64,000 nucleotides of DNA from NCBI GenBank assembly GCA_905233975.1, contig CAJOGD010000001.1, positions 162,635-226,634 on the forward strand, read 5' to 3'. The DNA comes from an uncultured Alphaproteobacteria bacterium. Its GTDB lineage: Bacteria > Pseudomonadota > Alphaproteobacteria > Rs-D84. Positions 12,412-62,655 of this stretch are shown piece after piece. A program made the translations under genes and the position numbers. Each line of letters opens with the position of its first letter. The first letter of the stretch is position 1. A model generated the notes under the pieces. The model saw only the letters and a list, made by a program, of their open reading frames with translations, was not told the origin of the DNA and did no database searches.

Positions 12412-12451
12412 CCCCTGTTCCACGAAACCTTGGCGAAGTGGGGACCGCCCA

Positions 12452-14095
12452 CTAACACTTTAACTTTCGCAGCACCACCATAATCCCCGCGGGTGTCATG
12501 CCGGGGATTTTTTGCAATTCTGCAATATTTGCCGGGCGAACATGTTTCAATTTTTCGCAAAGTTCGTTTGTCAGCCCCGGCATATTATCATAGTCAAAAT
12601 CGGCCGGGATTTTTATTTCCTTGTCGCGCCGATACGATTCAATTTCCCGGTTGTTTCGCATAATATACCCGGCATAGAATTTATCATTTTCGGAAATTTT
12701 CCCGGCTTTTTTGTTCATTTTGTTCAAAAAGGCCGGCAAATCGATTAAACCCAAATCGACACCAATTTGCCCCAAACGCGCAATCGCATTATCGGCACGC
12801 AGGTTCAAACGATACTCCGACCGCGATGTGAACATACGATACGGTTCGTCCACACCAAGTGTCGTTATGTCATCAATCATAACACCAATCATAGAATTTG
12901 TTCGGTCAATATCCAATGTGGAAAGGTCAAGCGCGAAAGCGGCGGCATTTGCACCCGCAACCAAGCCCTGGGCCGCGGCCTCTTCATAACCCGATGTTCC
13001 GTTTATTTGCCCGGCAAAGAATAACCCCGGCGCGCCACGCGCCATCAAATGTTTATCAATCGCGCGTGCATCAATCGCATCGTATTCAATCGCATATCCA
13101 TACCGCGCAAAGCGTGCATTTTGTAAGCCCGGAATTGTGCGAATCCATTGGTCTTGGATATCGGCACCGAAACTTGTTGAAATACCATTTGGATAAATCA
13201 AATCGCTGTGTAATCCTTCGGGTTCCAAAAATACATGGTGCGAAGTATGATCGGGAAACCGCATAACTTTATCTTCTATCGATGGACAATATCGCGGCCC
13301 AATGCCGGTTATGTCACCGTTATACATCGGCGCGTTTTTTATATTTTGCCGAATTATTTCATGTGTTTCGCCCGTTGTGTGCGTGATAAAGCAAACCGCC
13401 GTATTATTATCCACATCGCAACCATCGGAAAACCAATCGTGCGGTGTGTCGGGCAATTGTTCTTCGCATACGGAAAAATCGATAGAATCGCGATAAATCC
13501 GCGCCGGCGTTCCGGTTTTAAGTCGAATTATATCAAAACCAAAATCGCGCAATGCGGCGGAAATCACCGTATCGGGCAATTGATATTCACCGCTATCCAT
13601 AATTCGTCCGGACGGAATTTTATCGCCGCCCATCGTCACAAGACCGCACAAAAAAGTCCCGGTCGTGAATACGACGGATTTCGCCGTATAGACGCCGTTT
13701 ATAATTTTGTTTTCTAAATCGATAGATTCAACCTGTTCAAATTTAATGGTCAGGTTTGTATATTCACGCAAAATTTCCACAATCGCGGAATGATACAGTT
13801 CGCGGTCAATCTGCGCGCGCAAGGCCTGCGTCGCCGGGCCATGCGACGCATTAAGGGTTCGAAAATGAATGCCCGCCATATCCGCGGCGCGCGGCATAAC
13901 ACCACCCAGTGCGTCCATTTCCGCAACCATTTGCGATTTGCCCGGGCCGCCAATCGACGGATTGCACGACATCGCACCCAAATCAGATTCGCGCATTGTA
14001 ATCAGCAGTGTCCTTGCACCACGCCGCGCCGCGGCCGCGGCCGCTTCGGTTCCGGCATGTCCACCACCAATAACAATGACATCAAAATTTTGCAT
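12452..14095 (-). CDS. mnmG: tRNA uridine 5-carboxymethylaminomethyl modification enzyme MnmG (GidA)
   Basis: N-terminal FAD fold IVIGGGHAGTEAA and C-terminal PGMTPAGI motif. The stop overlaps the fabG start. Confidence 0.85.
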   Translation of the reverse strand: MQNFDVIVIGGGHAGTEAAAAAARRGARTLLITMRESDLGAMSCNPSIGGPGKSQMVAEMDALGGVMPRAADMAGIHFRTLNASHGPATQALRAQIDRELYHSAIVEILREYTNLTIKFEQVESIDLENKIINGVYTAKSVVFTTGTFLCGLVTMGGDKIPSGRIMDSGEYQLPDTVISAALRDFGFDIIRLKTGTPARIYRDSIDFSVCEEQLPDTPHDWFSDGCDVDNNTAVCFITHTTGETHEIIRQNIKNAPMYNGDITGIGPRYCPSIEDKVMRFPDHTSHHVFLEPEGLHSDLIYPNGISTSFGADIQDQWIRTIPGLQNARFARYGYAIEYDAIDARAIDKHLMARGAPGLFFAGQINGTSGYEEAAAQGLVAGANAAAFALDLSTLDIDRTNSMIGVMIDDITTLGVDEPYRMFTSRSEYRLNLRADNAIARLGQIGVDLGLIDLPAFLNKMNKKAGKISENDKFYAGYIMRNNREIESYRRDKEIKIPADFDYDNMPGLTNELCEKLKHVRPANIAELQKIPGMTPAGIMVVLRKLKC

Positions 14096-18941: not shown

Positions 18942-20060
18942 TTATTGTTCCTGGGGGATGTAAAGATTTGCGTTTATTTCCGGCCCCGCCCGAAACGTTC
19001 CCGATCCAGACGCTTTGAAATCGCGGCCGATTGTGTCATACATTCCAACATCGTTCCCATGTCTTGCCGGCACAAGGTTTTGAATAAGTTCCCCATTTCT
19101 GTACACCTTATAACTTTTAATGCTGCCGTTAAAATAATACCCGTAAGATCCGCCATAATACCGCGCAAACAAATAATTGTTTGCTGTATTTGTAAATGAA
19201 AACGGTGTGAAATTAACGGTGTTATTATCTATGCTAAGACGTCCCGATACAAAATCGTGAACAATTTTATGCCAATTTGTATCCACAGGTATATTGGTGT
19301 TGACTTTGGTGTTTGTTGAATCATAGGCGTAATATGTTTGATATGCATAAAACGCGCTGCTTTCCCCGGTTTCGTACACCCCATATATGGCACCATATCC
19401 TGTCGCAGAAGAATTTTTAAATTCCGTTTCAACGACATCTGTCCCGGCAAGTTTTATTTCTGTATCAATCCATTGTGTGCCGTCGGATTCAATCCATTCC
19501 AATGGTGTGTAACCGGTCGGTAAAAGTGTGTTATCCGTCGTTGGATTATGTATCGAATAAACCCAACAAAGGTCTGTATCGGGTTTAAATTCCTTACATT
19601 TAAATTCGTTATCAAGTCCGGTCTTTAATGCCGCATTAAATGTTTTCGCATCGATAAGGTTGTCCGCTTGTTCGGTGTATGTGCCGGTGGCCTGATAAAT
19701 CCCCTTTTGCCCTATTCCGCCCGGCTGTCCGGTATATGTGACGGCGGTGTGGTCGTTGACGGCGGCGATGTCGTCTTGTTTCTGATTTAATTTTGTATTA
19801 ACGCCACCAACCATGGGAAGTGATGTGTCGGTTGTGTCGCTGCCCAAATCGGATTTAACTGTGCGTTTCTGCACCGTTCCGGCCGAATCGGTGTATTCCA
19901 TGGCTTTATTCGTGTCCACGCCAAATTTGTTTTGTCGCGTACTAAGTTCATGTTCGACATATTTTAATGACGTCGCGGTTTTCCGGTCCGCCGCTTCTTC
20001 GGCAAACGCTGGCAGTACCGCCGCAATCAACCCGAACAATAAAAACTTTTTTAAATGCAT
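18942..20060 (-). CDS. Secreted variable-family protein, paralog 1 (conserved N-terminal domain, unique C-terminal domain, ends YIPQEQ)
   Basis: Sec signal MHLKKFLLFGLIAAVLPAFA|EE. About 170 aa are nearly identical to the ORFs at 38121, 45432 and 58487. SD 'aagggagag'. Confidence 0.8.
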   Translation of the reverse strand: MHLKKFLLFGLIAAVLPAFAEEAADRKTATSLKYVEHELSTRQNKFGVDTNKAMEYTDSAGTVQKRTVKSDLGSDTTDTSLPMVGGVNTKLNQKQDDIAAVNDHTAVTYTGQPGGIGQKGIYQATGTYTEQADNLIDAKTFNAALKTGLDNEFKCKEFKPDTDLCWVYSIHNPTTDNTLLPTGYTPLEWIESDGTQWIDTEIKLAGTDVVETEFKNSSATGYGAIYGVYETGESSAFYAYQTYYAYDSTNTKVNTNIPVDTNWHKIVHDFVSGRLSIDNNTVNFTPFSFTNTANNYLFARYYGGSYGYYFNGSIKSYKVYRNGELIQNLVPARHGNDVGMYDTIGRDFKASGSGTFRAGPEINANLYIPQEQ

Positions 20061-20456
20061 ATCGCTCTCCCTTTTTCGTTTTAATAACCACTAAAACAAA
20101 CACCGCAATGGAAACCAAGCGGTCGGGGTGTTAGCGTATCACTCAAAACCAAATGATTGTCGACTTTTGGCAAAGCCTGTTGTATAACCGACGCACCCCG
20201 AACCTTTTTATTCGGGGAAAACATAACGATGCAAAATTACAGAAAATTGTCGGATTACGATGTATTCTAATAATTCTGCACCGGGTTTGATAGAGCACGC
20301 TAATGCCCCGAACCAGATTCCCATCTAGTTCAACGCTATTCTATCAGAACACACCAAAACGGGTCAAGGATTTTTTAGTGGTATTTTGCAAACGGGCCGT
20401 CGGGACCGGCTTACTTTTCACTTTTCTTTTATATTTTTTACTATTATAATGCGGGC
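20061..20456 (-). promoter_or_regulatory. Type-A conserved 5' leader: extended -10 box plus a structured ~270-nt 5' UTR
   Basis: Box cTGATAGAATAG (rc of 20336-20347). It shares long blocks (gatgggaatctggttcg, catcgtaatcc, caccccgaccgcttggtttccattgcgg) with the leader at 46398-46800. It has the hairpin ccccgaataaaaggttcgggg. Confidence 0.55.
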
Positions 20457-23376: not shown

Positions 23377-23631
23377 TTTTTCTCCTTGCCTTCGTGCTAG
23401 GTAAACAGGACATAAAACAGCCCCGAACCAGATTTCATGGATTCAACGTTATTGTATCACAAAAAATGGACAATGAAAAATATATAATTTTGGTTGCGTT
23501 TTTGAACACCGTCATACCGCGGAAACGCGGTATCGTGTCGAACTTTCTGTGAATTTGCTATACGGATGAAACCACCCACAAAAATGTTACACATTTTTGT
23601 GGGGCTCGGTACTGCGGTATGACGGTGATTC
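23377..23631 (-). promoter_or_regulatory. Short leader with the family -10 box, plus a MITE-like palindromic module at the cassette's right end
   Basis: Box TGATACAATAA (rc of 23451-23461). Palindromes gtcataccgcggaaacgcggtat and cccacaaaaatgttacacatttttgtggg, also found at 38008-38075. Confidence 0.5.
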
Positions 23632-26026: not shown

Positions 26027-28285
26027 CTATCTTACAACAGGTGCCAAATCTTTCAACTCATTTGTTTGCGGGTTGTAATAGCGCGGATTTCCATTATATT
26101 CCAAAATCGCATGATGCATAGGAATCAGAAATTCCGGCAACGGCGATGACCGCCCCATTTTCATGTATTCTGACATCTTCGGGTCGCTAAACGCCATGCG
26201 CATTTCTGCCTTGATTGGACGTTGATACCAACCTTCGTACAATATAACCGCTTCGGCCGGTTTTCCACCAACAGTGACTTTCAGTTTCATAAGGTCGAAC
26301 TCACTAAACACCGGTTCTTCCTTCTTTTCTTTCTGTTCTGTTTCCTTGCCGTCCGGGCCTTTGACCTTTTTCTTTTCGGTTGTTATCTTCATTGGCATCA
26401 TTTTTGCAAATCGCACAGCGGTATCGATATCGTTTTGGCGGAACACAATCTTTGCCGCCGTTGTTGACATAATCGTTGCCGCCGCATCCGCACCGTATCT
26501 CTCTTGAATCTGGTGAATGTCCTGACCGATGAACAGATACGATATCTGCTGACTACGACCGACATCGGGCCCTTGGATAACGGCCTGCATCTTTTGCATT
26601 TTTGGCATTTCATCAAGCAAGAATAACACCGGATACGGTCCCATTTTTTCGCCACTGCGCCCGACGTGATCCGGTGGATTGGCAAGCAAGAAATTCGACA
26701 TCGTTTCAATAAACATTGCGGTAATTGGATTTAACGCCTTGGCATCAACCATGTTGATGGACAGATACACCGTCACCGGCTTCATTTTTCCGTCGCGTGG
26801 GTCAACCATTCCGCGCATATCGGCAAAATGAAAGTCCGAATGCGACGTCCGATTACGAACGGCGGCGTTGCGGAATATGGCAAGTCCGGTCAATATTGTT
26901 GAAATAATTGACCCGCGTTCGGTTGCCGGTGTGTTGGCCAATTTAGTAAGTTCCGCCACCGCACGATTTGAATACGCGAACGCGCGACATTCGGCCACCG
27001 CACCTTCCAACCAATCTTTCATTGGGTCCGCCATCATAACCGTTTGATCACCCTGCTTTTGTCGTTCTGCTAAATTTGCCGCAACGGCAATTTGCGCTTC
27101 GGTAATCCAATCAAGCATCATGGAAAATGACGCCTCTTTTCCAAGCCACATTTGCGGTATGTTTGCCCACGTTCCGATATGCACGTAATTCATCGCGTTT
27201 AATTCGCCATTCTTCAACAGGCCCATCGCTGCAAAGGCATTTGGGTCATTTACCATTGAAAAATAGTAATCGGAAAGCACCGCCGCGTCTTCGGCATCAA
27301 ATGTTCCGGATTGAAGTCGGCCATAGAAATAATCGTCCGCCTTGGCACGTTCGATTTTCGAAACGATGAATTGAATAAACCCGGCAAGCCCCGCCCGCCC
27401 AGATTGTGTCCAGTGTGGGTCGGCACTGCTGCCCGTTGCATCGGGGACAAGTACATCGCAAATATAATCGACATACAATTCGCGTTGTTCAATGCTAAAC
27501 GGTATATGCCCCGGCGAAAGCGGATTCCACGACGGATAATAAATACCCTTTTCTGGTTCGTCTTGGCCCGCCCAATTCATAATGAATACCGGACCAACCC
27601 GTTCCGAACGAAAGCCACTGGACTTTTCGTCGATTTCCGGTTTTGGGTCGTTTATAATCATCGACACATTTTGGCATTCAAAAATCGTAGGCAACGCAAT
27701 AGCCTGGGTTTTACCGGTTCCCGGGGGCGCCAAGCACAAAACAGATAATGTTTTTGGTAGTTTCAATGGCTTTTTCTTAAAATACCCAAGTACCATCATG
27801 AAACCATCAAACAGGCCCATTTCTTTGACGTCTTTCTCGTTCGCTTCACGCCCAGATTTTTTGTCGAATTCGTCCTTTCCGTTCGGATTGAATTCTTTCT
27901 TTAACGTATCATCGACCAAAAGGTAATACGCCAACACCGGAATCAGTGGCACAATGCACGCAAAATCCGGGTGCATAAGACACCTTACAACCCAATATGG
28001 AATTTCCGCAACGACCGATAGGCCCGCGCTTTGAAACATGTTGGTTAAATAGATTTTCATCCAATTCGCGGTTGCCGGCGACCAACCATATCGCCACAAA
28101 TGTTCAAACAAAAACGAAAAGCAAAACACCAACGCGCATATCAACCACACGCCAATCGACCAACGCAGAGCCCAAAAAACCTGGGCCATGGGGGTTTGTT
28201 CGTGTTCTTTATATGCGCTGGATTTGAAAATATTCAAACCCTTGCTATCTTTGCCCGCAGATAAAATCTTGAACTTTTGAACCAT
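26027..28285 (-). CDS. virD4: Type IV secretion system coupling protein (VirD4/TraG/TraD family)
   Basis: N-terminal TM helices, Walker A LAPPGTGKTQAIALPT, and the family motif IINDPKPEI. 752 aa. Confidence 0.7.
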   Translation of the reverse strand: MVQKFKILSAGKDSKGLNIFKSSAYKEHEQTPMAQVFWALRWSIGVWLICALVFCFSFLFEHLWRYGWSPATANWMKIYLTNMFQSAGLSVVAEIPYWVVRCLMHPDFACIVPLIPVLAYYLLVDDTLKKEFNPNGKDEFDKKSGREANEKDVKEMGLFDGFMMVLGYFKKKPLKLPKTLSVLCLAPPGTGKTQAIALPTIFECQNVSMIINDPKPEIDEKSSGFRSERVGPVFIMNWAGQDEPEKGIYYPSWNPLSPGHIPFSIEQRELYVDYICDVLVPDATGSSADPHWTQSGRAGLAGFIQFIVSKIERAKADDYFYGRLQSGTFDAEDAAVLSDYYFSMVNDPNAFAAMGLLKNGELNAMNYVHIGTWANIPQMWLGKEASFSMMLDWITEAQIAVAANLAERQKQGDQTVMMADPMKDWLEGAVAECRAFAYSNRAVAELTKLANTPATERGSIISTILTGLAIFRNAAVRNRTSHSDFHFADMRGMVDPRDGKMKPVTVYLSINMVDAKALNPITAMFIETMSNFLLANPPDHVGRSGEKMGPYPVLFLLDEMPKMQKMQAVIQGPDVGRSQQISYLFIGQDIHQIQERYGADAAATIMSTTAAKIVFRQNDIDTAVRFAKMMPMKITTEKKKVKGPDGKETEQKEKKEEPVFSEFDLMKLKVTVGGKPAEAVILYEGWYQRPIKAEMRMAFSDPKMSEYMKMGRSSPLPEFLIPMHHAILEYNGNPRYYNPQTNELKDLAPVVR

Positions 28286-33425: not shown

Positions 33426-34154
33426 ATGAAGAAAACCGCGCTTTTTATGATTGGTTTTGTTGCACTGTGCGCGTGTGATAAACATGACCCGATTTTGCCG
33501 GGCGAACGAACCAATATTTTTGCAACTGAAAAAGTGCGCGTTTTAAATACAGCGGTTCCAGATGTGGCGGAAAATATCGAAGAAAGTGCGGTCAATGATT
33601 GTCCGTATCGGTTGGACACGCAAAATACAATCTGGGACGGCGATAAGAAAATATTTGCCGGATTCCCAACCAATAATTATGTTCGTGGGCAAAAAAATCC
33701 GGTGTGCGATGGTGGATTCGTTTATGCGGGGCTGTCCACCGGTGAATTGATAAAGGTGAATCCACAAAATCGCCAAATTGCATGGATTGCAGATGTGTAT
33801 CGCCAAAGCAATATGACCGGTGGCGCGTCCGTTTTGGACATTATTGCGCCGATTCAAATTTATAAAAAATATGTGTATGCGGGCGGCCTGGGGGGCGCGT
33901 TCTGCAAGATTTCTGATGCGACCGGTGCGACCGCATGGTGCGCCGATATTGGTGTGGAACATGCCTTTATAATTACAAATGATACCGCGTATGTTTTGGA
34001 TACGGATAATAATTTAAATGCGGTTCGTTTGCGCGACGGCGCGTTTTATTGGCGTACACCGGTTAAAAAATCCGCCGCGCCACAATACAAAAATAAAACG
34101 ATTATCGTCGCCAACGAAAAATTCGACGCCGAAAGTGGAAAGTTGATTAAATAA
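33426..34154 (+). CDS. Lipoprotein with PQQ/beta-propeller-like repeats (BamB-like, short)
   Basis: Lipobox VALCAC. Repeats such as YAGGLGGAFCKISDATGATAW and AYVLDTDNNLNAV. Confidence 0.4.
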   Translation: MKKTALFMIGFVALCACDKHDPILPGERTNIFATEKVRVLNTAVPDVAENIEESAVNDCPYRLDTQNTIWDGDKKIFAGFPTNNYVRGQKNPVCDGGFVYAGLSTGELIKVNPQNRQIAWIADVYRQSNMTGGASVLDIIAPIQIYKKYVYAGGLGGAFCKISDATGATAWCADIGVEHAFIITNDTAYVLDTDNNLNAVRLRDGAFYWRTPVKKSAAPQYKNKTIIVANEKFDAESGKLIK

Positions 34155-34197
34155 GTGGGAAAACAACTCTCACTAACCACTTACACTAACCACTAAA

Positions 34198-35316
<1,119 letters not shown>

Positions 35317-36488: not shown

Positions 36489-37847
36489 ATGCCAAAAATA
36501 AAAAAAGTTTTAATTGCCAATCGTGGCGAAATTGCGTTGCGAATAATTCGCGCGTGCCGCGATATGGGCATTCGAACGGTCGCGGTGTATTCTACGGTCG
36601 ATAGGAACGCCATGCATGTGCAATTGGCGGACGAATCTGTGTGCATTGGGCCGGGACCATCAAAGGATTCTTACCTTAACGAATCCGCGATATTGACGGC
36701 GGCGTTGTTGACCAATGCGGACGCAATTCACCCCGGATACGGGTTTTTATCCGAACGTGCGGACTTTGTGCAAAAGGTTGAACAGCATGGCCTTATATGG
36801 ATTGGACCCGACGCGGCGATGATAAATAAAATGGGGGACAAGGTTAACGCCAAAAAAACCGCGATTGAATGCGGTCTGCCGGTTGTGCCGGGATCCGATG
36901 GTGCGGTCGATACGGTCGAAGATGCATTAAAATGGGCGGAAAAAATCGGATACCCCGTAATGTTAAAGGCCGCGGCCGGTGGCGGTGGTCGTGGTATGCG
37001 TCCCGTTATGTCGGCCGACGAAATGACCGAGGCGTTTGAGATTACCAAGAACGAGGCCCGCAGTGGTTTCGGCGACGATACGCTTTATATGGAAAAATTA
37101 TTATTGCACCCGCGGCATATTGAGTTCCAGGTCTTGGGCGACAAACATGGCGACGTTGTAATCTTTGGCGAACGCGATTGTTCGTTGCAACGCAAGAATC
37201 AAAAGGTTATGGAGGAATGCCCCGCCGCCGCACTGACACAAAAACAGCGCGACGATATGATTGAAATTTGCAAAAATGCGGCAAAGAAAATGGGCTATAC
37301 GAACGCCGGCACGTTTGAATTTATGTACGAAGATGGCAAGTTTTATTTCTTGGAAATGAACACGCGGCTTCAGGTTGAACACCCCGTAACGGAAATGGTT
37401 TACGGTGTCGATTTGGTGCGCGAACAAATTCGCGTTGCGGCGGGCGAAAAATTGGGCTATACCCAGGCAAACGTTATCCCGCATGGTCACGCGATTGAAT
37501 TTCGAATCAATGCCGAAGACCCAACGGACTTTGTGCCCTGCCCCGGCAAAATCACGCTTTATGCGCCGTCGGGCGGCCTTGGCGTTCGCGTGGACAGTGC
37601 GGTCTATACCGGATACACAATTCCACCAACGTATGATTCGATGATTGCAAAGTTAATCGTGCATGCGCAAACGCGGTCTGCGTGTATAATGCGTGCGGAA
37701 CGCGCACTGGACGAATTTGTTATCGAAGGCGTAAAAACAACCATTCCGTTGCAAAAGAAATTGCTTAATAATCGCGACGTCCGCACATTGAACTTTGATA
37801 ACCATTGGTTGGAAGGTTATCTAAAGAAAGAAAATAAGAAGAAGTGA
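36489..37847 (+). CDS. accC: Biotin carboxylase
   Basis: ATP-grasp fold, 452 aa. It lies immediately after accB. Confidence 0.9.
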   Translation: MPKIKKVLIANRGEIALRIIRACRDMGIRTVAVYSTVDRNAMHVQLADESVCIGPGPSKDSYLNESAILTAALLTNADAIHPGYGFLSERADFVQKVEQHGLIWIGPDAAMINKMGDKVNAKKTAIECGLPVVPGSDGAVDTVEDALKWAEKIGYPVMLKAAAGGGGRGMRPVMSADEMTEAFEITKNEARSGFGDDTLYMEKLLLHPRHIEFQVLGDKHGDVVIFGERDCSLQRKNQKVMEECPAAALTQKQRDDMIEICKNAAKKMGYTNAGTFEFMYEDGKFYFLEMNTRLQVEHPVTEMVYGVDLVREQIRVAAGEKLGYTQANVIPHGHAIEFRINAEDPTDFVPCPGKITLYAPSGGLGVRVDSAVYTGYTIPPTYDSMIAKLIVHAQTRSACIMRAERALDEFVIEGVKTTIPLQKKLLNNRDVRTLNFDNHWLEGYLKKENKKK

Positions 37848-38126
37848 GTGGCGAGTGTTAGTGCTAGTGATTGGTGCGCGGGGCAACAAAGCCCCGCTTT
37901 TTTATTTCCGTCATATCGCGCTATCGGGCCCCGCAAAAAATGCCGTCATACCGCTGTAAAGCGGTATCTCGTCGGAACCGTCGCGGGGTAATTCTCAGAA
38001 AAGCCTAAGGAGATACCGCGTCAGGCGCGGTATGACGGCTTGAAATCACCCACAAAAAACGCTATGCGTTTTTTGCGGGGGCCGATACCGCGGGGTGACG
38101 TCACTAATACTTCCCACTAATTATTG
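37848..38126. mobile_element. MITE-like composite repeat (~280 bp). TTAGTG-type terminal arms enclose nested palindromes.
   Basis: Left arm gtggcgagtgttagtgctagtgattggtg. Right arm gtcactaatacttcccactaattattg. Internal: gcggggcaacaaagccccgctttttt (the accC terminator), gtcataccgctgtaaagcggtat, ataccgcgtcaggcgcggtatgacgg and cccacaaaaaacg..cgttttttgcggggg. Confidence 0.6.
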
Positions 38127-39128
38127 ATTCTGGGGGATATAAATTGTTTCTCCGTTCCAATCTTCTTCCACCGGCGTGGCAAGTGGATAATACACCGTCA
38201 CCGGTGTTCCTGCGGCGTATTGCCCGGCAAGATAGGCTTCAAAATCGGCAATTGTTGGATAATTAACACGCGACACATTCACCGTAAATGAACCAACACC
38301 ATCTATACGGGCATAGCGCAAAGCCGACGTTATTGCATCTGCGTTATACTGGTAATTTCCCTGTCTTGGAAAGTTTGAATAATAACCACTAGTTGCCCAA
38401 TTTAACCACTCTTCTGTTCCGTCCAAAACCTTTACCCCAACGCGTCGTGTGATTTTGTGGGTTGTGGCGTCGTATGAATCGGCATAGTCGCCAACGCGAC
38501 GCAGAATTAGGTTATCTTGTTGATAAAAAACGGGATAAATCGGATTTTCTGGCGTCGGTGTGCCGTCTTGTGTGACGGTGCCGGTCGCCGAAACGTATTC
38601 GGTGTTATTATGTATCGTATAGAGCCAACAAAGGTTGGACACCGGATCGCGGTTATCTTCCCTACATACAAATTCACTATCAAGACCATTCTTTAATGCC
38701 GCGTTGAACGTTTTGGCGTCAATCAGGTTGTCGGATTGGGTGGCATACGATTCGCTTGTTTGATAAATTCCTTTCCGCCCTATTCCACCCGGTTGGCCTG
38801 TATATGTGACGGCGGTGTGATCGTTAACCGGGCCAATGTCATCTTGCTTTTGATTTAATTTTGTATTCACACCACCAACCATGGGCAGTGATGTGTCGGA
38901 CGTATCGCTACCCAAATCGGATTTAACTGTGCGTTTCTGCACATCGCCGGCCGAATTAGTGTATTCCATGGCCTTGTCCGCTTCCGCGGTAAATTTATTT
39001 TGTCGTGTACTAAGTTCATGTTCGACATATTTTAATGACGTCGCCGTCTTGCGGTCCGCGGCTTCTTCCGCCACCGCCGGCAACACCGCCGCAATTAATC
39101 CGAACAACAAAAACTTTTTCAAAAACAT
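38121..39128 (-). CDS. Secreted variable-family protein, paralog 2 (ends YIPQNQ)
   Basis: Start set at MFLKKFLLFGLIAAVLPAVA (SD 'aaggggagg'). The N-terminal 170 aa are conserved. The C-terminus is unique. Confidence 0.8.
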   Translation of the reverse strand: MFLKKFLLFGLIAAVLPAVAEEAADRKTATSLKYVEHELSTRQNKFTAEADKAMEYTNSAGDVQKRTVKSDLGSDTSDTSLPMVGGVNTKLNQKQDDIGPVNDHTAVTYTGQPGGIGRKGIYQTSESYATQSDNLIDAKTFNAALKNGLDSEFVCREDNRDPVSNLCWLYTIHNNTEYVSATGTVTQDGTPTPENPIYPVFYQQDNLILRRVGDYADSYDATTHKITRRVGVKVLDGTEEWLNWATSGYYSNFPRQGNYQYNADAITSALRYARIDGVGSFTVNVSRVNYPTIADFEAYLAGQYAAGTPVTVYYPLATPVEEDWNGETIYIPQNQ

Positions 39129-39385
39129 TTTCCTCCCCTTTGTTCTTTGCACTAACACTAAGTAAAAAACCACAGAAAACGTGTGGTTGGAGGTTAACGA
39201 CTATAATGTTCGGAAAATAGTGGGCTTATTCGATATATTCACCGCCCTCCAACCAAATTAGGTTGGAGGTGTTTTATGTCCCCGCGGACACCGAACATTA
39301 TAAAGGGTCGTTACACCACATCGGCGGAACACCCACCGACAGACCTATTCTATCAAAAAACGGAAATAAAAAACAAGAGAAAAAA
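39129..39385 (-). promoter_or_regulatory. Type-B conserved 5' leader: extended -10 box, a conserved hairpin, and a terminator-like hairpin 35 nt before the start codon
   Basis: Box TTTTGATAGAATAG (rc of 39346-39357). Hairpin cctccaacc-N7-ggttggagg (39245-39269). Hairpin aaccacag-aaaacg-tgtggtt plus a U-run (39163-39189). About 200 nt are almost identical to 58157-58320. Confidence 0.6.
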
Positions 39386-39538
39386 GTGGTTAGTGTTAGT
39401 GATTAGTGTAAGTGGTTTGTGTTCCGCCTTCGCTGTCGCTGCGCCGCGACTGCGCCAGGGTTTCGCCCCGGCTTGGTGTAAAAGAAACGGGCGCAAATGC
39501 GCCCGCACTAATCACTTACACTAACACTTTTCACTATC
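39386..39538. mobile_element. MITE-like repeat with TTAGTG or CACTAA inverted arms (~150 bp)
   Basis: Left arm gtggttagtgttagtgattagtgtaagtggtttgtg. Right arm cactaatcacttacactaacacttttcactatcc. GC-rich palindromes lie inside. Confidence 0.6.
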
Positions 39539-40132
39539 CTATATCAAACAAGACAATGCGGCGCTGGTGTTCTTTAATAAAAACCATCCGATATGATAAT
39601 TTGTTAAATACACCGTTATCATAAATATCGCAAAGATACCAACAACAACCGTCACCGCCGCACGCCGGCCGCGCATGCAATACAGTGCGATATTGTAAAA
39701 CAAAAACAGCACATATAAATCGCCAACGATACTGATTATCCACATGGAAAGGCAATTAAACGCGGCCGCATTCAACGCCAATATTACGGGATATATAAAA
39801 AATATCGACGCCAAACCCTTTATCGCAATTTCCCAATCGCGTTCGCCACCCGTTATTTCGGAAACCAACATCAACAGGCCCCCGCCGACAAACAACAATG
39901 CGACCGCAACGACCGGAACGATTATAACCGCCGTAAAGACAGAATTTATTGTTATCGTCGCGCCCCCCAGCAATTTCATTCCTAAAACCAGCAGGCCGCC
40001 CAACAATCCATATATAAACGCCTTTAACATAGATTCTTCGATATCGCCGTCGGCAACAATTTTTGAAAAGAATCTGCGCGGGTTCACAATAATATCTTTG
40101 ATAGACCGAAACCAATTTTTTATTTTTTTCAT
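39539..40132 (-). CDS. Yip1-domain family membrane protein
   Basis: Five predicted TM helices and an N-terminal soluble region. 197 aa. Confidence 0.45.
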   Translation of the reverse strand: MKKIKNWFRSIKDIIVNPRRFFSKIVADGDIEESMLKAFIYGLLGGLLVLGMKLLGGATITINSVFTAVIIVPVVAVALLFVGGGLLMLVSEITGGERDWEIAIKGLASIFFIYPVILALNAAAFNCLSMWIISIVGDLYVLFLFYNIALYCMRGRRAAVTVVVGIFAIFMITVYLTNYHIGWFLLKNTSAALSCLI

Positions 40133-44352: not shown

Positions 44353-45021
44353 ATGGTAAAAACAAAAACTCAAGCCGGGGAGACGGCAACAAAAAAATAT
44401 GTTAAATTTGGTATCGTGGCGGCTATCGTAATCGCGGTTGCGGTTATTGGCCTGTTCGCTGTCAGGGCTTTTTCGGGCAGAACGGTTAGCGCCGAAACGG
44501 CGATTGACGGCATTACACCTGACGCGGTATCTGGTGGCGATTTGCGTGTTGCGGTTGTGCGTATGGACGCGATTCAGTCCGAGGCCAAGGCCCTGCAGGA
44601 TTTGCGCAAACAACGTGAAAACTATGAAAGCAAACTGCGTGATGAATTGACCAAGGAACAAAAAGAATTGGAAAAAGAAAAAGAAGAAATCGAAAAATCC
44701 CAAGACGTCTTGTCCCAGGAAGCATTGCAACGTCGCGTTGTTGAATACCAAGGCAAGGTGACAAAATTGCAACGTGATTTGACCGAACGTGCCCAGGCTG
44801 TGGACGCCGCGTTCCAAAAGGCGTTGGTCGAAATCCAAGAAAAGCACCTTGATCCGATTATCGAAGCGGTTATTGCGAAAAAGAATTTGTCTTTGGTAAT
44901 TGATGGTCGTTTTGCGCGTGTTGCACCAAACATTGAAAACCTGGATATCACCAACGATGTTATCAAGGCGTTGGATAAAAAGGTTTCGAATGTAAAAATG
45001 GAAACACCGAAAGGGTTTTAA
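44353..45021 (+). CDS. skp: Skp/OmpH-family periplasmic chaperone
   Basis: N-terminal TM or signal segment, then a long coiled coil rich in K, E and Q (LQDLRKQRENYESKLRDELTKEQKELEKEKEE). SD 'aaaggaag'. Confidence 0.6.
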   Translation: MVKTKTQAGETATKKYVKFGIVAAIVIAVAVIGLFAVRAFSGRTVSAETAIDGITPDAVSGGDLRVAVVRMDAIQSEAKALQDLRKQRENYESKLRDELTKEQKELEKEKEEIEKSQDVLSQEALQRRVVEYQGKVTKLQRDLTERAQAVDAAFQKALVEIQEKHLDPIIEAVIAKKNLSLVIDGRFARVAPNIENLDITNDVIKALDKKVSNVKMETPKGF

Positions 45022-45122
45022 TGGAAAGTGTTTAGTGTTAGTGAAACCGGCGCACCCGCGCCGGTTTTTTACTACCCCGAAATACAATGGACAAACGTGC
45101 CGCGTTTGCGTAGAATGCATGC

Positions 45123-45431: not shown

Positions 45432-46397
45432 TTATTGGTTTTGCGGGATATACACGTTTTTGTATGGTTCGTATTCTGTAATAACGTCACCTTGTTCCAA
45501 CTGCAAACCGTTCGCAAGTTGTATAAGCTGGTTTTGTGAAAATGAACCGAAACTTGAAATATTTATATATGCCGCATTATCTTGGAAAGTCCAACGCCTG
45601 CCTAGCCATATATGGTCGTTATTGGCACTGGTGGTATGCGCTGAAATTATCCGACCGTTTGCATCATAAACATATAAATTAAACTGTGTTGTAATATTAC
45701 AATTGGTAGAACCATTATAACTCAATATATACGTTTCACCGCCAATAATCGGAATAGGTGAACCGTTTGCCAATTTACCAGCGTTAGGTGCTTGGGTCGT
45801 ATACGTGGCGCCCCCATAGCTAGCCCAATCATTAAAACCAATATTGTTTTTATTAAATAAATTTTTGGTGTGTTCTTCGGTTGGGTTGTGTATCGAATAC
45901 ACCCAACAAAGGTCTGTTCCGGGTTTAAATTCCTTACATTTGAATTCTCTATCAAGTCCCTTCTTTAATGCGGCGTTAAAGGTTTTGGCGTCGATTAAAT
46001 TATCCGATTGTTCGGCGTATGTGCCGGTTGTCTGATAAATTCCTTTCTGCCCTATTCCGCCGGAATCACCGGTATATGTGACGGCGGTATGGTCGTTCAC
46101 CGCGGCGATGTCGTCCTGTTTTGTATCAAGTTTTGTATTCACGCCACCAACCATAGGCAGTGAATCTGTCCCGCCATTATCTAAATCCGATGTGACCGCA
46201 CGTTTTTGCACCGTTCCGGCCGCATTAGTATATTCCATCGCCTTGTTTGCTTCCGCGGTAAATTTATTTTGACGTGTATCAAGTTCATGTTCGACATAGT
46301 TAAGTGACGTTGCTGTTTTGCGGTCCGCGGCTTCCTCCGCCACCGCCGGCAATATTGCCGCCATCAACCCGAACAACAAAAACTTTTTCAACTGCAT
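45432..46397 (-). CDS. Secreted variable-family protein, paralog 3 (ends YIPQNQ)
   Basis: Start at MQLKKFLLFGLMAAILPAVA (SD 'aaggaga'). The N-terminus is conserved. The unique C-terminus contains a QLEQGDVITEYEPY jelly-roll-like terminal strand. Confidence 0.8.
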   Translation of the reverse strand: MQLKKFLLFGLMAAILPAVAEEAADRKTATSLNYVEHELDTRQNKFTAEANKAMEYTNAAGTVQKRAVTSDLDNGGTDSLPMVGGVNTKLDTKQDDIAAVNDHTAVTYTGDSGGIGQKGIYQTTGTYAEQSDNLIDAKTFNAALKKGLDREFKCKEFKPGTDLCWVYSIHNPTEEHTKNLFNKNNIGFNDWASYGGATYTTQAPNAGKLANGSPIPIIGGETYILSYNGSTNCNITTQFNLYVYDANGRIISAHTTSANNDHIWLGRRWTFQDNAAYINISSFGSFSQNQLIQLANGLQLEQGDVITEYEPYKNVYIPQNQ

Positions 46398-46800
46398 ATC
46401 GCTCTCCTTTTCTTTTTTCCCCGTCATCCCGCGCTTGACGCGGGATCTCCCCGTTATTGTCGCGGTTTTGCCCCTCGACGGCTCCGACGGGATTCCGGCT
46501 TTCGCCGGAATGACGGCTTTATGTAAGTCTCACTAGCCACTAACACTTACACCAAAATAAGTGCCGCAATGGAAACCAAGCGGTCGGGGTGTTCGAAAAT
46601 CATTTATGTCATTGATTCCCATGGCCTTTTGCAAAAGCATTATAGCCATAGGCACCCCAACATTGGGGTAAAATCTATAACGGTGCAAAACACGAATGGA
46701 GATTACGTGGATTACGATGCTTTGCACCGGACATAAACAGGCTTTCGACAGCCACGAACCAGATTCCCATCTGACTCACATTCATTATATCAAAAACCTT
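46398..46800 (-). promoter_or_regulatory. Type-A conserved 5' leader (second copy) with an upstream palindromic repeat module
   Basis: Box TGATATAAT (rc of ~46784-46793), a perfect extended -10. The covarying hairpin ccccaatgttgggg stands in for ccccgaataaaaggttcgggg of copy 1. It shares caccccgaccgcttggtttccattgcgg. Confidence 0.55.
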
Positions 46801-57104: not shown

Positions 57105-57989
57105 ATGGGAAAATTTGGCCTTGGACGGAATTTAACGGATTTACAGACTGAAATGGGCGTGGCGCCGGAAATATCGATATTAAACGGCGCCGAACGTGTT
57201 GTTGTGCGGCAAATCCCGATGGCGCAAATCGGTGTGAACCCTGACCAACCGCGCAAGACATTTACTCCCGAAGATTTGGCGGATTTGTCGGCGTCTATAA
57301 AAGAGAAGGGCGTGTTGCAGCCGATTCTGTTGCGTTCGGTTAAAAATCGGCCGTATATGTATGAAATTGTCGCGGGCGAACGCCGCTATCGCGCAAGTAA
57401 AATGGCGGGCCTCTCCGAAATTCCGGCGTTGGTAAAGAATTTGGCGGACAATAATGCGATGGAAATCGCGCTGATCGAAAACGTGCAACGCGAAAACCTG
57501 AACCCGATAGAGGAGGCCGCGGCGTATGTGAACCTTATGAACAAATGTGAATACAGCATGGCGGACGTGTCTAATTTGATTGGGAAATCCGAAAGTTATA
57601 TCCGGAATTTGGTGCGCCTTAACGGTTTGCCGGTGTCGGTCAAAAAAATGGTAGAGCAGGGCGCACTTTCCGCATCGCACGCGCGTGCGATTGCCGTCGC
57701 CGAAGACCCGGAAAAAATGGCGCGCGAAATTGTAGCGCAAAAATTATCGGTCGCGGACACCGAAAAACGCATGAAAAACGTGGCGCGTTCCGGCCAAAAC
57801 CGCAAGTTTGCAAATAAAACCATGGACACAAAAACCGTCAAAGAATTGACGGCGCGTGCGGGGCGCGCCCTGGGTGCAACGGTCAAAATTACCGAAAAAC
57901 GCGGCGGCGCTGGCGTGATAACAATAAACTTTGACACGCGTAATCAGTTGAACGAAATCATCGACAAAATTGCCGGCCGAATCGCATAA
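57105..57989 (+). CDS. parB: Chromosome partitioning protein ParB
   Basis: ParB box GERRYRA and an HTH region. Confidence 0.9.
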   Translation: MGKFGLGRNLTDLQTEMGVAPEISILNGAERVVVRQIPMAQIGVNPDQPRKTFTPEDLADLSASIKEKGVLQPILLRSVKNRPYMYEIVAGERRYRASKMAGLSEIPALVKNLADNNAMEIALIENVQRENLNPIEEAAAYVNLMNKCEYSMADVSNLIGKSESYIRNLVRLNGLPVSVKKMVEQGALSASHARAIAVAEDPEKMAREIVAQKLSVADTEKRMKNVARSGQNRKFANKTMDTKTVKELTARAGRALGATVKITEKRGGAGVITINFDTRNQLNEIIDKIAGRIA

Positions 57990-58010
57990 AAATATCAAAA
58001 AACCCGGGAA

Positions 58011-58126
58011 GTGCAGTGTAAGTGTTAGTGGTTAGTGATAGTGACGTCATACCGCCCTTCGGCGGTATGACGCGGTTCAGGCAGAACTTACACTAATTAC
58101 TAATACTAATCACTAACACTAACCAC
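58011..58126. mobile_element. MITE-like element (~116 bp). TTAGTG and CACTAA inverted terminal arms surround a perfect hairpin.
   Basis: Left arm gtgcagtgtaagtgttagtggttagtgatagtg. Central hairpin acgtcataccgcccttcggcggtatgacg. Right arm ttacactaattactaatactaatcactaacactaaccac. Confidence 0.65.
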
Positions 58127-58130
58127 TTTT

Positions 58131-58486
58131 TTCACTTGTTTTTTGTTTCTGTTTTTTGATAGAATAGGGGTGTCGGTGGGTGTTCCGCCGGCGGGGTGTC
58201 AAGACCCTTGGGTTCCGGGTGTCCGCGGGGACATAAAATACCTCCAACCAAAAAGTGGTTGGAGGGCGGTGAATATATCGAATAAGCCCACTATTTTCTC
58301 GGAACATAGTCTTGAACCTCCAACCACTAGAAGATTTTCGGTGGTTTCGTTTATTTGTGTGCAAATAAACGAAACAGCAGAGAACCGTCATTCCGGCGAA
58401 TCCGCCGCGGATTGGGTCTCTGCAACACTTAGGAGATACCGCGTCAAGCGCGGTATGACGAGAAAAAAGGAAACAAGGGGAGAAAA
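58131..58486 (+). promoter_or_regulatory. Type-B conserved 5' leader (second copy): extended -10 box plus a ~310-nt structured 5' UTR
   Basis: Box TTTTGATAGAATAG (58157-58168). Hairpin cctccaacc-aaaaagt-ggttggagg (58241-58265). Terminator-like hairpin aaccac..gtggtt plus a U-rich run (58311-58345). Palindromes ccgtcattccggcgaa.. and gagataccgcgtcaagcgcggtatgacg come before SD 'aaggggag'. Confidence 0.6.
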
Positions 58487-59437
58487 ATGCAATTGAAAAA
58501 GTTTTTGATGTTCGGGTTGATGGCGGCGGTGTTGCCGGCGGTGGCGGAAGAGGCCGCAGACCGGAAAACGGCGACGTCATTAAAATACGTCGAACATGAA
58601 CTTGATACGCGTCAGAATAAATTTACCGCGGAACAAAACAAAGCCATGGAATACACCGATTCGGCCGGCGTGGTGCAAAAACGTGCCGTCACGTCGGACC
58701 TGGATAATGGTGGAACCGATTCGTTGCCCATGGTTGGTGGTGTGAATACAAAACTAAACCAAAAACAGGACGACATCGCCGCGGTCAACGACCATACCGC
58801 CGTCACATATACCGGGCAGCCCGGCGGAATAGGGCGGAAAGGAATATATCAGGCCACCGAATCGTATGCCAACCAATCTGATAACCTTATCGACGCCAAA
58901 ACGTTCAACGCGGCACTTAAAAACGGACTTGATAGCGAATTTAAATGCAGGGAAGATAACCGCGATCCAGTGTCCGGACTTTGTTGGCTCTATACGATAC
59001 ATAACACCAGTCCGAATTTGTTTGATAAAAATAATTTAACACGCATATATGGTTATTTCCCATCTAGCGGTTCAGATTGGACGTATGTAACCGCAGGATA
59101 TTCAATAAGAATACCATGTCAGCCAAGCACAACATATACGGCGCGTTATAATGGCAATAGTTCCCAAGTTGTATTATCCTTTGCGTCCACAGGCAGTGAT
59201 GAAATACCATTGGGTGGATCGCGTGTTGCATGCACTAACAGTATTCGGCAAAACAACCCAACAATCGATACGCCAATAACATTCACTACTGGTCCAAATG
59301 ACAAATGGCTAATTGTTCAATACAATGTTAACGAACCACAAAATACCGACATGGCAAACAATCTACAGGTTGAAATTGGTTCAACCGCAACACCGTACGT
59401 TCCATACGGCAGCGTTTACATTCCACAGAACCAATAA
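58487..59437 (+). CDS. Secreted variable-family protein, paralog 4 (ends YIPQNQ)
   Basis: MQLKKFLMFGLMAAVLPAVA signal. The N-terminus is a mosaic of paralogs 2 and 3. The unique C-terminus carries LQVEIGSTATPYVPY, a jelly-roll-like terminal strand. Confidence 0.8.
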   Translation: MQLKKFLMFGLMAAVLPAVAEEAADRKTATSLKYVEHELDTRQNKFTAEQNKAMEYTDSAGVVQKRAVTSDLDNGGTDSLPMVGGVNTKLNQKQDDIAAVNDHTAVTYTGQPGGIGRKGIYQATESYANQSDNLIDAKTFNAALKNGLDSEFKCREDNRDPVSGLCWLYTIHNTSPNLFDKNNLTRIYGYFPSSGSDWTYVTAGYSIRIPCQPSTTYTARYNGNSSQVVLSFASTGSDEIPLGGSRVACTNSIRQNNPTIDTPITFTTGPNDKWLIVQYNVNEPQNTDMANNLQVEIGSTATPYVPYGSVYIPQNQ

Positions 59438-59618
59438 CGTCATACCGCCGAAAATTTGTATGTGAGAACGAGCGTAAGCGAAGTTCAAACAACTACAAAT
59501 TTGCGCGCAGGCTGTAAGCCGAGCGAAATGCGGTATCTTGTCAGTGTTGCAGAGAGTAAAGTCCCCTTCGCTGGCGAAGGGGTGGCGGAAAAAAACACCG
59601 GCGGGTTGCCGGTGCAAG

Positions 59619-60931: not shown

Positions 60932-61489
60932 ATTAAACCGCAAAATAATCGTGATAATCGGCGTGATATGGGACCACGCACAAACAATAGAATAATCGCA
61001 AAGTCTGTTCAGGTTATCGGTGCAGACGGCCAAAATCTGGGTGTTATGCCAACGGCGGACGCATTACAGATTGCAATGGATTTGGGACTTGATTTGGTGG
61101 AATTAAATGCAAATTCTGTGCCGCCTGTTGCGAAAATAATGGATTTTGGAAAATTCAAATACGAACAGAAAAAACGCGCAAACGAAGCCAAGAAAAAACA
61201 AAAAATCACCGAATTGAAAGAGGTTTGGATAAAACCTTTTATCGAAGAAAACGATTTGCAAATCAAATTGCGCAAGGTTCTTGAATTCCTTGATGCCGGT
61301 GACAAGGTTAAAATATCGGTCATGACCAAGGGAAATCGTCGCGTGCTGGCCATTGGACGTGATTCTGTGCCGGCGTTGTTCGAACATGTCATCGAATTAA
61401 TCGGCGAACATGGAACACTGGAAAGTCGTTCCAAACCGGACGAGCGAACAAAGTCAATTATTGTTGCGCCGGCAAAACCGGCAAAGTAA
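60932..61489 (+). CDS. infC: Translation initiation factor IF-3, probably starting at a non-canonical AUU
   Basis: IF-3 N- and C-domain motifs (VQVIGADGQNLGVM, PPVAKIMDFGK). An in-frame ATT at 60932 lies 6 nt after SD 'aaaggag', which fits the classic autoregulated AUU start. The ORF-track ATG at 60968 would give a truncated N-terminus. Confidence 0.75.
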   Translation: MKPQNNRDNRRDMGPRTNNRIIAKSVQVIGADGQNLGVMPTADALQIAMDLGLDLVELNANSVPPVAKIMDFGKFKYEQKKRANEAKKKQKITELKEVWIKPFIEENDLQIKLRKVLEFLDAGDKVKISVMTKGNRRVLAIGRDSVPALFEHVIELIGEHGTLESRSKPDERTKSIIVAPAKPAK

Positions 61490-61557
61490 AAAAATCCGCC
61501 GTCTGGCGGATTTTTTAGCGGTTAGTGTAAGTGTTAGTGGTTAATGCGGGCGCGGTC

Positions 61558-62655
61558 TTATTTGCGTTTTCCCCCACGAAACAATCCGCTTAAAAATCCA
61601 TTGCGACATTTTGTTGATTCGTTTTGTGTTTGTAACGCTGTAAAATATTTAGCTTCGGCCGCCTTGGTTGCGGTGACCAAATCCGCGCGAATATCGACAA
61701 GTGGCCGCGGATTTCCGTCTGAACCACGCCATGGAACGGTTATCTTTTCACCTTCGGCGGCACCAAGTGTGACATTTCCAAACGAATCAAACGCAACAAG
61801 AACTTCGTTGTTCGGACAGAGAATTGTGAATTGCGGCGTTGGGTTGTGAAATGCATACGGAATGTTTGTGGCGCGGCCATTACTGGAAACATACGGGGCA
61901 GAGCTGTATTCCAGTGCCAATCGGCCATTCACGAGGACCACAGAGTCGTTTTTAACTTCTTGGGTTTTGGGGTCAATAAGTTGTCCCCATTCGGCCGATA
62001 TGCCGGCATTGCGTAATTTGTTCAACAATTCGTCAAACATTAGTCTATCAAAATCGAAAGAAGACACGCGGACAGCGTACGTTGCGCCATTGATTTTTTG
62101 TTGTGATAACCTTTTAAGGACTTCGAAATCACGTTCCATGCAATTGTTATGAAAACGATCTAATGATAATTGTATTTCAAAAGGATAATGCGTACGTGCG
62201 TTTTTAGATGTTATAACTTTTGGCCTTTGTCGCAGCATTAGGTTGTGAATGTCGTTAAAAACTGTATCGCAAAATGGTTGGTCAACAAAGTATGCATTGG
62301 TGTTGGCGGCAACAAGAACTTTGCGGTTTAGCGCATATTCAATAATATTTGTGAAATAATGTCTGCGTGCATTAGGCGCGTCTAGAAATTCATAGGCGGA
62401 CGTTGGTTCGCCACCGGTCACGATAAAGTTTTTTGAAAAAAGAGGATCTTGTAAGGCCTGGTCTATATAACCGGTAATAACTTTTTCTGGGATAAAGTTT
62501 TTGGGTTGGTCGGGGCCAGAATTTTCAAAACAGTGCGCGCATTTATCAGGGCAAAAATGTGTGGTTTTGACCACCAGTGCGTATGGTTGGTTCGCGACAA
62601 GGTTCGAAATGGTGCCGTTTTCACAGAATAGAAAAAATTCTGGTGCTGGCTGCAT
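61558..62655 (-). CDS. Radical SAM domain protein of unknown function (365 aa)
   Basis: CPDKCAHC is a CX3CX2C motif at residues ~35-42. A glycine-rich SAM-binding region GGEPT follows. Confidence 0.6.
   Translation of the reverse strand: MQPAPEFFLFCENGTISNLVANQPYALVVKTTHFCPDKCAHCFENSGPDQPKNFIPEKVITGYIDQALQDPLFSKNFIVTGGEPTSAYEFLDAPNARRHYFTNIIEYALNRKVLVAANTNAYFVDQPFCDTVFNDIHNLMLRQRPKVITSKNARTHYPFEIQLSLDRFHNNCMERDFEVLKRLSQQKINGATYAVRVSSFDFDRLMFDELLNKLRNAGISAEWGQLIDPKTQEVKNDSVVLVNGRLALEYSSAPYVSSNGRATNIPYAFHNPTPQFTILCPNNEVLVAFDSFGNVTLGAAEGEKITVPWRGSDGNPRPLVDIRADLVTATKAAEAKYFTALQTQNESTKCRNGFLSGLFRGGKRK

Follow-up and report, generated by a model that had tools for sequence, protein, structure and literature searches.

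Introduction

Repeats of the REP/BIME/REPIN type in Enterobacteria and Pseudomonas have been proposed to act in termination and mRNA stability, and their proximity to the stop codon matters. The DUS of Neisseria and the USS of Pasteurellaceae are group-specific words, which often stand as inverted pairs downstream of genes and double as terminators. The STRR heptamers of cyanobacteria belong to the same class of short tandem intergenic repeats as the arrays described here. Direct repeats of the heptamer TAACTGA have been found in Beggiatoaceae, Cyanobacteria, and Bacteroidetes, mostly a few nucleotides ahead of start codons, with a single indirect repeat (PMC4679880). Ca. Enterousia belongs to Rs-D84, an order with reduced genomes of mostly less than 1 Mb, at about 0.75-1.0 Mb (PMC12306168).

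In this study, we analyzed tandem tracts of TTAGTG-type units in a 64-kb window, by which we mean the whole stretch of 64,000 nucleotides, and in related loci (numbered with L). A preliminary description of the window had read the interval 37848-38126 and similar sites as MITE-like composite repeats, in which TTAGTG or CACTAA arms enclose GC-rich palindromes. We found that, on the sense strand, the tracts are anchored at the 3' boundaries of genes in the Ca. Enterousia (Rs-D84) group.

Results

TTAGTG-type tracts in the window

The sequence TTAGTGTTAGTG was searched in the 64-kb window at up to two mismatches. It gave 24 matches against 2.20 expected, and 0 of 100 shuffles reached 24. Tracts of at least three units numbered eight in the genuine sequence and 0.06 in shuffles, and Tandem Repeats Finder detected arrays with periods of 6, 7, and 13 at 34171, 39385, 39506, 58015, 58086, and 61521. 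The match excess, the long tracts and these periods indicate that the TTAGTG observation is real. Outside the tracts the hexamer is scarce: it occurs 8 times in 64 kb, whereas same-composition hexamers have a median count of 34. TTAGTG-type units were present at every one of the at least 11 places listed earlier, but the place near 20085 holds one degenerate unit; two further short sites were found at 39150-39161 and 12450-12461. The flanking genes encode AccC, ParB, IF3, OmpH/Skp, MreB, and MnmG, which confirms the four gene identities given before (accC, parB, infC, and skp). The tracts start 0-24 nt past the stop codons, and tracts at stop codons adjoin terminators, again as described. The anatomy matched none of REP, ERIC, Correia, and RPE and is that of a real, unusual repeat family. 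No Rfam family was found in the window or in 12 related loci, and our literature search found no paper mentioning the TTAGTG tract sequence.

The interval 37848-38126 opens with GTGGCGAGTGTTAGTGCTAGTGATTGGTG, immediately 3' of the accC stop codon (TGA, 37845-37847). The tract here, at 37848-37876 (plus strand), is abutted by an intrinsic-terminator-like hairpin, GCGGGGCAACAAAGCCCCGC, with a T-run (37878-37907, plus). Nested GC-rich palindromes of the CGTCATMCCGC family occupy 37902-38107, with arms at 37902-37943/38066-38107 and 37942-37954/38027-38039, and contain the palindrome CCCACAAAAAACGC/GCGTTTTTTGCGGG at 38049-38079. The convergent variable-family gene at 38121-39173 has its stop codon at 38121-38123, where a degenerate tract (38098-38126; minus-strand sequence TAA TTAGTG GGAAGTA TTAGTG) sets in, and the interval ends with TCACTAATACTTCCCACTAA, which overlaps this stop. 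These results show that 37848-38126 consists of two independent tracts of convergent genes, which flank a separate GTCATACCGC palindrome family.

Two other inverted pairs were present in the window. The gene at 39539-40132 is followed on the minus strand by its stop-proximal tract (39506-39538) and a terminator hairpin, GCGGGCGCATTTGCGCCCGT (39506-39487), which together span 39487-39538. The far arm of this pair, at 39386-39421 (plus), lies downstream of the gene, with an A-run before it, and the 39386/39506 module has a fold energy of -70.2 kcal/mol (z=-8.0). The terminator-like sites adjoining tracts at 37878 and 39506 were the two best between 33000 and 47500. In the third pair, the 5' arm at 58008-58043 (plus) starts about 20 nt past the parB stop codon (57987-57989). 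A core hairpin, GTCATACCGCC-CTTC-GGCGGTATGAC (58045-58072), stands between the arms, and the 3' arm at 58085-58133 (minus) is a period-13 array of 3.2 copies followed by T6. The parB module at 57995-58140 folds with -59.7 kcal/mol on the plus strand and -56.1 on the minus strand (z about -7). Overall, the window pair modules reached -56 to -70 kcal/mol with z from -6.9 to -8.0 and were flanked by A-runs and U-runs.

The remaining tracts of the window were single or remnant. The tract at 34160-34196 (minus) begins one base past the mreB stop codon (34198-34200), fills a 43-bp convergent gap and has stops in all six frames; alone it folds weakly (34150-34205, -10.1 and -7.4 kcal/mol). After the OmpH/Skp stop codon (45019-45021), a tract at 45022-45043 is followed by the terminator CCGGCGC-ACCC-GCGCCGG and T6, the whole spanning 45022-45070 (plus). 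Upstream of the variable-family gene at 45432-46427 lies a tract at 46531-46555 (minus), which adjoins hypervariable palindromic filler at 46421-46530. At 61515-61546 (plus), a tract directly follows the terminator 3' of the infC (IF3) stop codon (61487-61489) and is separated by 12 nt from the stop of the convergent gene at 61558-62655. A two-unit tract (39150-39161, minus) stands between the leader terminator and the ribosome-binding site of the variable-family gene at 38121-39173. The remnant tract at 12450-12461 (minus) contains the mnmG stop codon, and the mnmG ortholog in L019 has a full tract, TAGTGTAAGTGGTTAGTGGGTAGTG. It had been suggested that tracts bracket every variable-family cassette. 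An upstream tract was found in 4/4 paralogs (at 30-360 nt), but a tract at the 3' end only in 38121-39173.

Unit structure and distribution in the clade

A scan with the pattern TWAGTGTWAGTGNTTAGTG, with one genome per species, returned at least 112 stretches. About 90 among the matches listed came from 44 assemblies labelled Ca. Enterousia, Alphaproteobacteria, or proteobacterium (gut/rumen). The tracts are not restricted to the 64-kb window and occur in at least 44 species-level genomes. Exact AccC matches came from gut metagenome assemblies, and in the nearest loci MreB, AccC, and MnmG were 91-97% identical to those of the window. A search for ParB-encoding contigs of further strains returned the same strain alone. 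Since the same tracts stand in loci of many related gut/rumen assemblies, they are clade-wide rather than local.

The sample of 162 tracts used below comprises the window and the loci retrieved through a strong tract; its densities and some of its proportions are biased because most loci were chosen for containing such a tract. In this biased sample, roughly a tenth of the genes carry a tract. The commonest units were GTTAGTG (185), TTAGTG (114), TAAGTG (98), and ATTAGTG (46), all tandem 6- or 7-mers without an internal palindrome. Units of the types T(T/A)AGTG and (G/A)TTAGTG alternate, with 286 transitions from 6 to 7 or 7 to 6 versus 85 between units of the same length. This alternation results in a 13-nt super-period.

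The tracts are attached to the ends of genes

The relationship between tracts and genes was examined with simple ORF calls, in which an ORF of at least 80 codons was taken as long and was counted if its end lay between 60 nt upstream of the tract and the tract end. Only 3 of 162 tracts lay inside long ORFs. Read in the TTAGTG sense, 107 of 162 followed an ORF of at least 80 codons, compared with 57 of 162 in antisense. The TAG or TAA of the first unit is itself the stop codon of the upstream gene in 33 of 162 tracts, and antisense ORFs ended in the tract in 17. TAG made up 66% of the stops of tract-bearing genes versus 14% in others. A general preference for a stop followed by GTG was absent from genes without tracts. 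In convergent gaps with a single tract, the tract hugged the gene read in the TTAGTG sense in 24/29 cases, and the median distances to the two genes were 20 and 103 nt. By gap context, 52 tracts were convergent, 67 tandem, and 16 divergent. Because tracts start at or just after the stops of many genes across the clade, they look like a gene-end repeat rather than the ends of a MITE.

The tracts are rich in stop codons. At a median length of 26 nt, 127 of 162 (78%) had stops in all three sense frames, and 81 of 162 in all six. The 127 compare with 18 in composition shuffles and 91 in unit-order shuffles. Among the tracts that the search pattern had not picked, 36 of 63 had three-frame stops versus 26.4 in 500 unit-order shuffles (maximum 34), a test in which selection for frame coverage is inseparable from simple slippage of the 13-mer. 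In-frame backup stops, which result from 6-to-6 transitions, were the rarest arrangement.

Terminators were frequent beside the tracts. A canonical terminator-like site was found within 100 nt in 32% of tract genes versus 10.6% of other genes, and its stem started 0-3 nt past the tract in 23 of 27 cases. A GC hairpin with a U-run was present in the separate hairpins that adjoin tracts and in the window's two tract-pair modules, and absent from most pairs and from the rpoB-rpoC module. A Rho-loading site on the C-rich strand was considered, but the sense strand is G-rich and C-free, and paired arms would be base-paired.

Pairing of the tracts

The arms had been described as usually forming inverted pairs. 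In the window only three pairs were found (37848/38098, 39386/39506, and 58011/58085), which account for 6 of 13 tracts, the others being single. With loose calling across the clade, 75 of 162 tracts (46%) were paired and 87 (54%) single, and 3 had a CACTAA-like run on the "wrong" side. What held was the order of the arms, TTAGTG and then CACTAA, where pairs exist. Strict calling gave 32 pairs, all in this order, and 0 in the reverse order. The pair spacers measured 13-350 nt (mostly 13-100) and were non-homologous; neither sequence nor size was conserved between the arms. Flanking A-runs and T-runs were found in about 7 of 30 pairs in the clade.

The arms of a pair showed no sign of common origin. 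Their complementarity was 0.716 within pairs versus 0.733 across loci (p=0.78), and arm lengths within pairs were not correlated (rho -0.28). Selection for balanced or compensated stems was not supported, as arm lengths were uncorrelated and arms did not co-vary. An origin of single tracts from decayed pairs was rejected, as no excess of downstream CACTAA or ACTAA remnants was found. No target-site duplication was detected; the longest direct flank match was 3.43, compared with 3.41 in mismatched controls. Presence/absence polymorphism of tracts was not seen: the stop codon of the same gene keeps its tract, and it is the DNA between tracts that varies. A cognate transposase was sought among 20 window proteins scanned, in gene tables and by a crude regex screen of about 1.06 Mb for HUH/Y1 motifs, a weak test, and none was found.

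Orthologous sites and strain variation

Next to accC, a 3' tract was present in the window, in the 97.8%-identical strain L001, in L102, and in L042, and the downstream DNA was wholly different each time; accC of L037 had a terminator only. The mreB orthologs of L019, L102, L112, and L037 all carried a tract, in varying arrangements. In the rpoB-rpoC spacer of 8 species, the rpoB stop codon lies in the first unit of a TTAGTG arm, which is followed by unrelated spacer, a CACTAA arm, a Shine-Dalgarno sequence, and the rpoC ATG. The skp tract differed between the window and L001 at 8/25 positions versus about 2-3% in the flanks. Between these two strains, the segments 37871-38118 and 46421-46530 were replaced wholesale. 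In L001 (11383-12535), a 339-aa Fic-domain gene takes the place of the palindromic filler 37871-38118 between accC and the variable-family gene, and two AATCGTCTCAAAAAA direct repeats stand ahead of it.

Other repeats and genes near the tracts

Palindromes bounded by CGTCATMCCGC numbered 13 in the window against 2.7 expected. Nested inverted repeats of this family lie at 37902-38107, 46421-46516, and 23507-23627, and further copies at 58045-58072 and 59438-59448. Some copies contain an inner CCCACAAAAA...TTTTTGTGGG palindrome. The element at 23507-23627, which is bounded by CGTCATACCGC and has 21-nt arms that are 86% complementary, stands without TTAGTG tracts, and the palindrome and tract families are therefore independent. 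The exact CGTCATMCCGC-family motif occurred 9 times in the window, whereas about 680 kb of other species' sequence contained only 4 copies. Thus, the arms and palindromes that the preliminary description had joined into one composite element, quoting palindromes that do exist in the window, are two independent repeat families. The GTCATACCGC palindromes are young, nearly species-specific filler, and the tracts are an old, clade-wide family. The CGTCATMCCGC family is the more MITE- or REP-like of the two.

Other small elements were seen between or beside tracts. A recurrent spacer, TCTGGAATnATTTCRTAATTAC...ATTCCAGA, was always nested between arms in L024, L033, L055, L057, L061, L075, L080, and L089, and was absent from the window. 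A palindromic element, CCGYCWYCG...GACRRGG, lay within or beside tracts at 39422-39475 of the window and near the mreB or accC 3' ends of L019, L033, L042, L102, and L112; taking it out of L042 would restore a continuous tract.

The variable family has four paralogs of 316-372 aa in the window, at 18942-20060, 38121-39173, 45432-46427 (all minus), and 58487-59437 (plus). They have no Pfam domain, their 5' halves are about 80% identical and their 3' halves variable, and distant relatives exist in other Enterousia-like loci. A conserved leader of about 200 nt precedes members of the family at 39162-39385 (minus) and 58128-58486 (plus) of the window, at 7330-7620 of L102, and at 13560-13850 of L001. 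It contains a CCTCCAACC/GGTTGGAGG hairpin, an invariant GAATATATCGAATAAGC, a second AACCTCCAACC with potential alternative pairing, and a terminator-like hairpin right before the ribosome-binding site. The leader had no Rfam match and looks like an attenuator or a riboswitch-type leader.

Small genes for four-helix-bundle proteins, which may be like the 23S rRNA intervening-sequence proteins, lie between or adjoin tracts in L023 (5302-5670), L030 (1119-1487), L074 (3213-3515), and L035 (2824-3201), that is, in Enterousia-like and Prevotella genomes alike. A TraG/VirD4-type coupling protein of 752 aa (T4SS-DNA_transf, TrwB_AAD_bind, TraG-D_C) is encoded at 26027-28285 (minus) in this reduced genome. 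Typical tract modules were present on the IMG/VR contigs L122, L123, and L124, which encode terminase, a portal-like adaptor, major head, and tail proteins beside DnaB and probably come from an Enterousia-like chromosome, as a cluster of the gene-transfer-agent or prophage type. Carriage of tracts by phages was considered from these three contigs, but they look chromosomal, next to dnaB, and are uninformative in this respect.

Similar arrays in other phyla

Matches outside Enterousia came from Bacteroidales, Prevotella, Muribaculaceae, Nitrospirae, Stigonema, and Saprospiraceae, which carry similar arrays. A long ORF ended at or in the array in 17 of 32 of these tracts, often at its first base, and some had inverted partners. 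Arrays such as TTAAGTATTAAGTGTTAGTGATTAGTGATTAAGT and (GTTAGTG)n stand at the stops of long ORFs in L035, L036, L046, L048, L053, L074, and L104 (Bacteroidales), L018 (Stigonema), L078 and L099 (Nitrospirae), and L005. The tracts may possibly belong to a broader class of stop-anchored, stop-saturated repeats.

Discussion

The reading that we tentatively prefer, at somewhat less than an even chance, is that the tracts are lineage-wide, sense-specific gene-end modules: arrays of stops in all frames that stand beside terminators, form long hairpins when paired, and are remodelled by slippage. We infer this function from the anatomy alone. In the transcript, the tract would open the 3' UTR and, over about 26 nt from where the ORF ends, would offer TAG, TAA, or TGA in all three frames, often in all six. 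At these stops, ribosomes in any frame would be released before they reach the terminator hairpin beside the tract or a neighbouring gene. A second tract downstream is nearly always opposite in orientation, so the arms can pair, and paired tracts could build a long stem that encloses a variable GC-rich core; flanked by A-runs and U-runs, this stem would make a bidirectional terminator. Inside operons such as rpoB-rpoC, the pair may act as a hairpin between cistrons, with a possible part in processing or stability. Replication slippage would rapidly alter how many units a tract has and in what order. Against this reading, stop content leaves the AGTG core and the conservation of the same unit unaccounted for, and other stop-rich sequences would serve as well; in-frame backup stops are the rarest arrangement, and only roughly a tenth of the genes carry a tract. 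Selection on the hairpin itself is weakly indicated, as arm lengths are uncorrelated, the arms do not co-vary, and few pairs have flanking A-runs and T-runs.

Such arrays may instead be a selected all-frame stop cassette of wider use, possibly read by a dedicated factor, which releases ribosomes in every frame and insulates neighbouring genes. It would have arisen in, or spread to, more than one phylum of gut and environmental bacteria, with Ca. Enterousia/Rs-D84, Bacteroidales, Nitrospirota, and heterocystous cyanobacteria as the groups concerned; arrays start exactly at stop codons in all of them. We consider this unlikely.

Two other explanations appear doubtful, to the same degree. The first is a selfish hairpin like a REPIN, in which a TTAGTG-then-CACTAA doublet would replicate and be mobilised in trans (e.g., by a RAYT/HUH-type enzyme), single tracts would be decayed halves, and anchoring at stops would follow from deletion bias and harmlessness at gene ends. 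The extragenic position at gene 3' ends, the hundreds of copies implied, the fixed orientation of the doublet (32 to 0), the long hairpins, and the fast turnover in hypervariable neighbourhoods agree with it, and REPIN populations are known to persist vertically across a clade. However, these are tandem repeats without an internal palindrome, 54% stand alone and show no remnant of a partner, paired arms have no shared ancestry, the spacers are non-homologous, and the polarity toward one gene is strong; nor did the crude screen of about 1.06 Mb contain an ORF with an HUH/Y1 motif.

The second is a binding array for a clade-specific DNA or RNA factor. This might be a protein that acts as a polar roadblock or terminator, or one that binds RNA in the 3' UTR and reads (U/A)AG triplets spaced 6-7 nt apart; a DNA-uptake signal is a further variant. 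Such a factor could account for the AGTG core kept in at least 44 genomes while copy number turns over rapidly, for the regular 13-nt period, and for the polarity relative to genes, and the (U/A)AG spacing may be likened to that of TRAP and HutP sites. Its weak points are that no candidate protein emerged, that the hexamer is rare outside tracts, unlike DUS/USS, and that stop-anchored arrays occur in unrelated phyla, which argues for universal over clade-specific machinery.

It is improbable that the tracts are a functionless, microsatellite-like by-product, i.e., slippage-prone arrays kept only where they are tolerated, in the intergenic DNA at gene ends. Their tandem structure would fit, and so would the differences among strains and species in the number and order of units, as would the analogous heptamer arrays of cyanobacteria and Beggiatoaceae, which have no assigned function (PMC4679880). 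However, reduced genomes of about 0.75-1.0 Mb (PMC12306168) usually purge useless DNA, the same unit stands at orthologous sites of many species, rpoBC included, the tracts are polar to the sense strand, and frame coverage exceeded that of all unit-order shuffles.

The initial view of MITE-like elements with terminal inverted repeats of TTAGTG hexamers, in favour of which stand the three window pairs that enclose palindromic DNA and the strain-variable segments that abut tracts, is largely refuted and very improbable, as target sites are not duplicated, the DNA between the arms is conserved in neither sequence nor size, there is no common ancestry of paired arms, no transposase in the window proteins scanned or the crude screen of about 1.06 Mb, about half of the tracts are unpaired, and the same gene's stop precedes the tract across species, whatever DNA lies downstream.

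Reduced genomes normally shed repeats, and retention of the tracts at orthologous gene ends in dozens of species, even within rpoBC, suggests a working signal where translation and transcription termination meet. If confirmed, the tracts, preferably read as gene-end modules, would represent a new type of 3'-end element that combines sense polarity, a 13-nt period, and saturation with stops, and would offer a handle on how gene boundaries are defined in uncultured gut Alphaproteobacteria. Annotators would also be cautioned against taking them for MITEs or assembly noise. The tracts affect gene calling, as the tract provides the upstream stop codon in 33 of 162 cases.

Compared with known systems, the tracts share with bacterial MITEs (Correia, RPE, and ERIC) that they are small, non-coding intergenic DNA with inverted repeats, but they are not a discrete element and have no target-site duplication, conserved core, or insertion polymorphism. 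The analogy to DNA-uptake sequences was rejected: DUS and USS are single 9-12-mers over-represented genome-wide, coding DNA included, whereas TTAGTG is tandem and rare outside the tracts. The likeness to rho-independent terminators is that tracts abut GC hairpins with T-runs and that paired tracts with A- and T-runs fold as long bidirectional terminators; the tract itself is neither a GC stem nor a U-run, most pairs have no U-runs, and one conserved pair lies inside the rpoBC operon. REP, BIME, and REPIN sequences are likewise extragenic, stand at gene 3' ends and in operons, occur as single copies and inverted hairpin doublets, and form mosaics with small palindromes. REPs are imperfect palindromes of 20-40 nt with a GTAG/GTGG head and a RAYT gene, whereas the tracts are palindrome-free tandem 6/7-mers, polar to the upstream gene, and the crude motif screen, a weak test, showed no RAYT. 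The closest described phenomenon is the intergenic TAACTGA heptamer repeat (PMC4679880). Like the TAACTGA and STRR repeats, the tracts are intergenic tandem arrays of 6-7-nt units with stop codons, a lineage-characteristic unit, and a patchy presence in other phyla. They differ from the TAACTGA repeats in their TTAGTG/GTTAGTG unit, their anchoring at stop codons, their 13-nt super-period, and the 46% that stand in inverted pairs.
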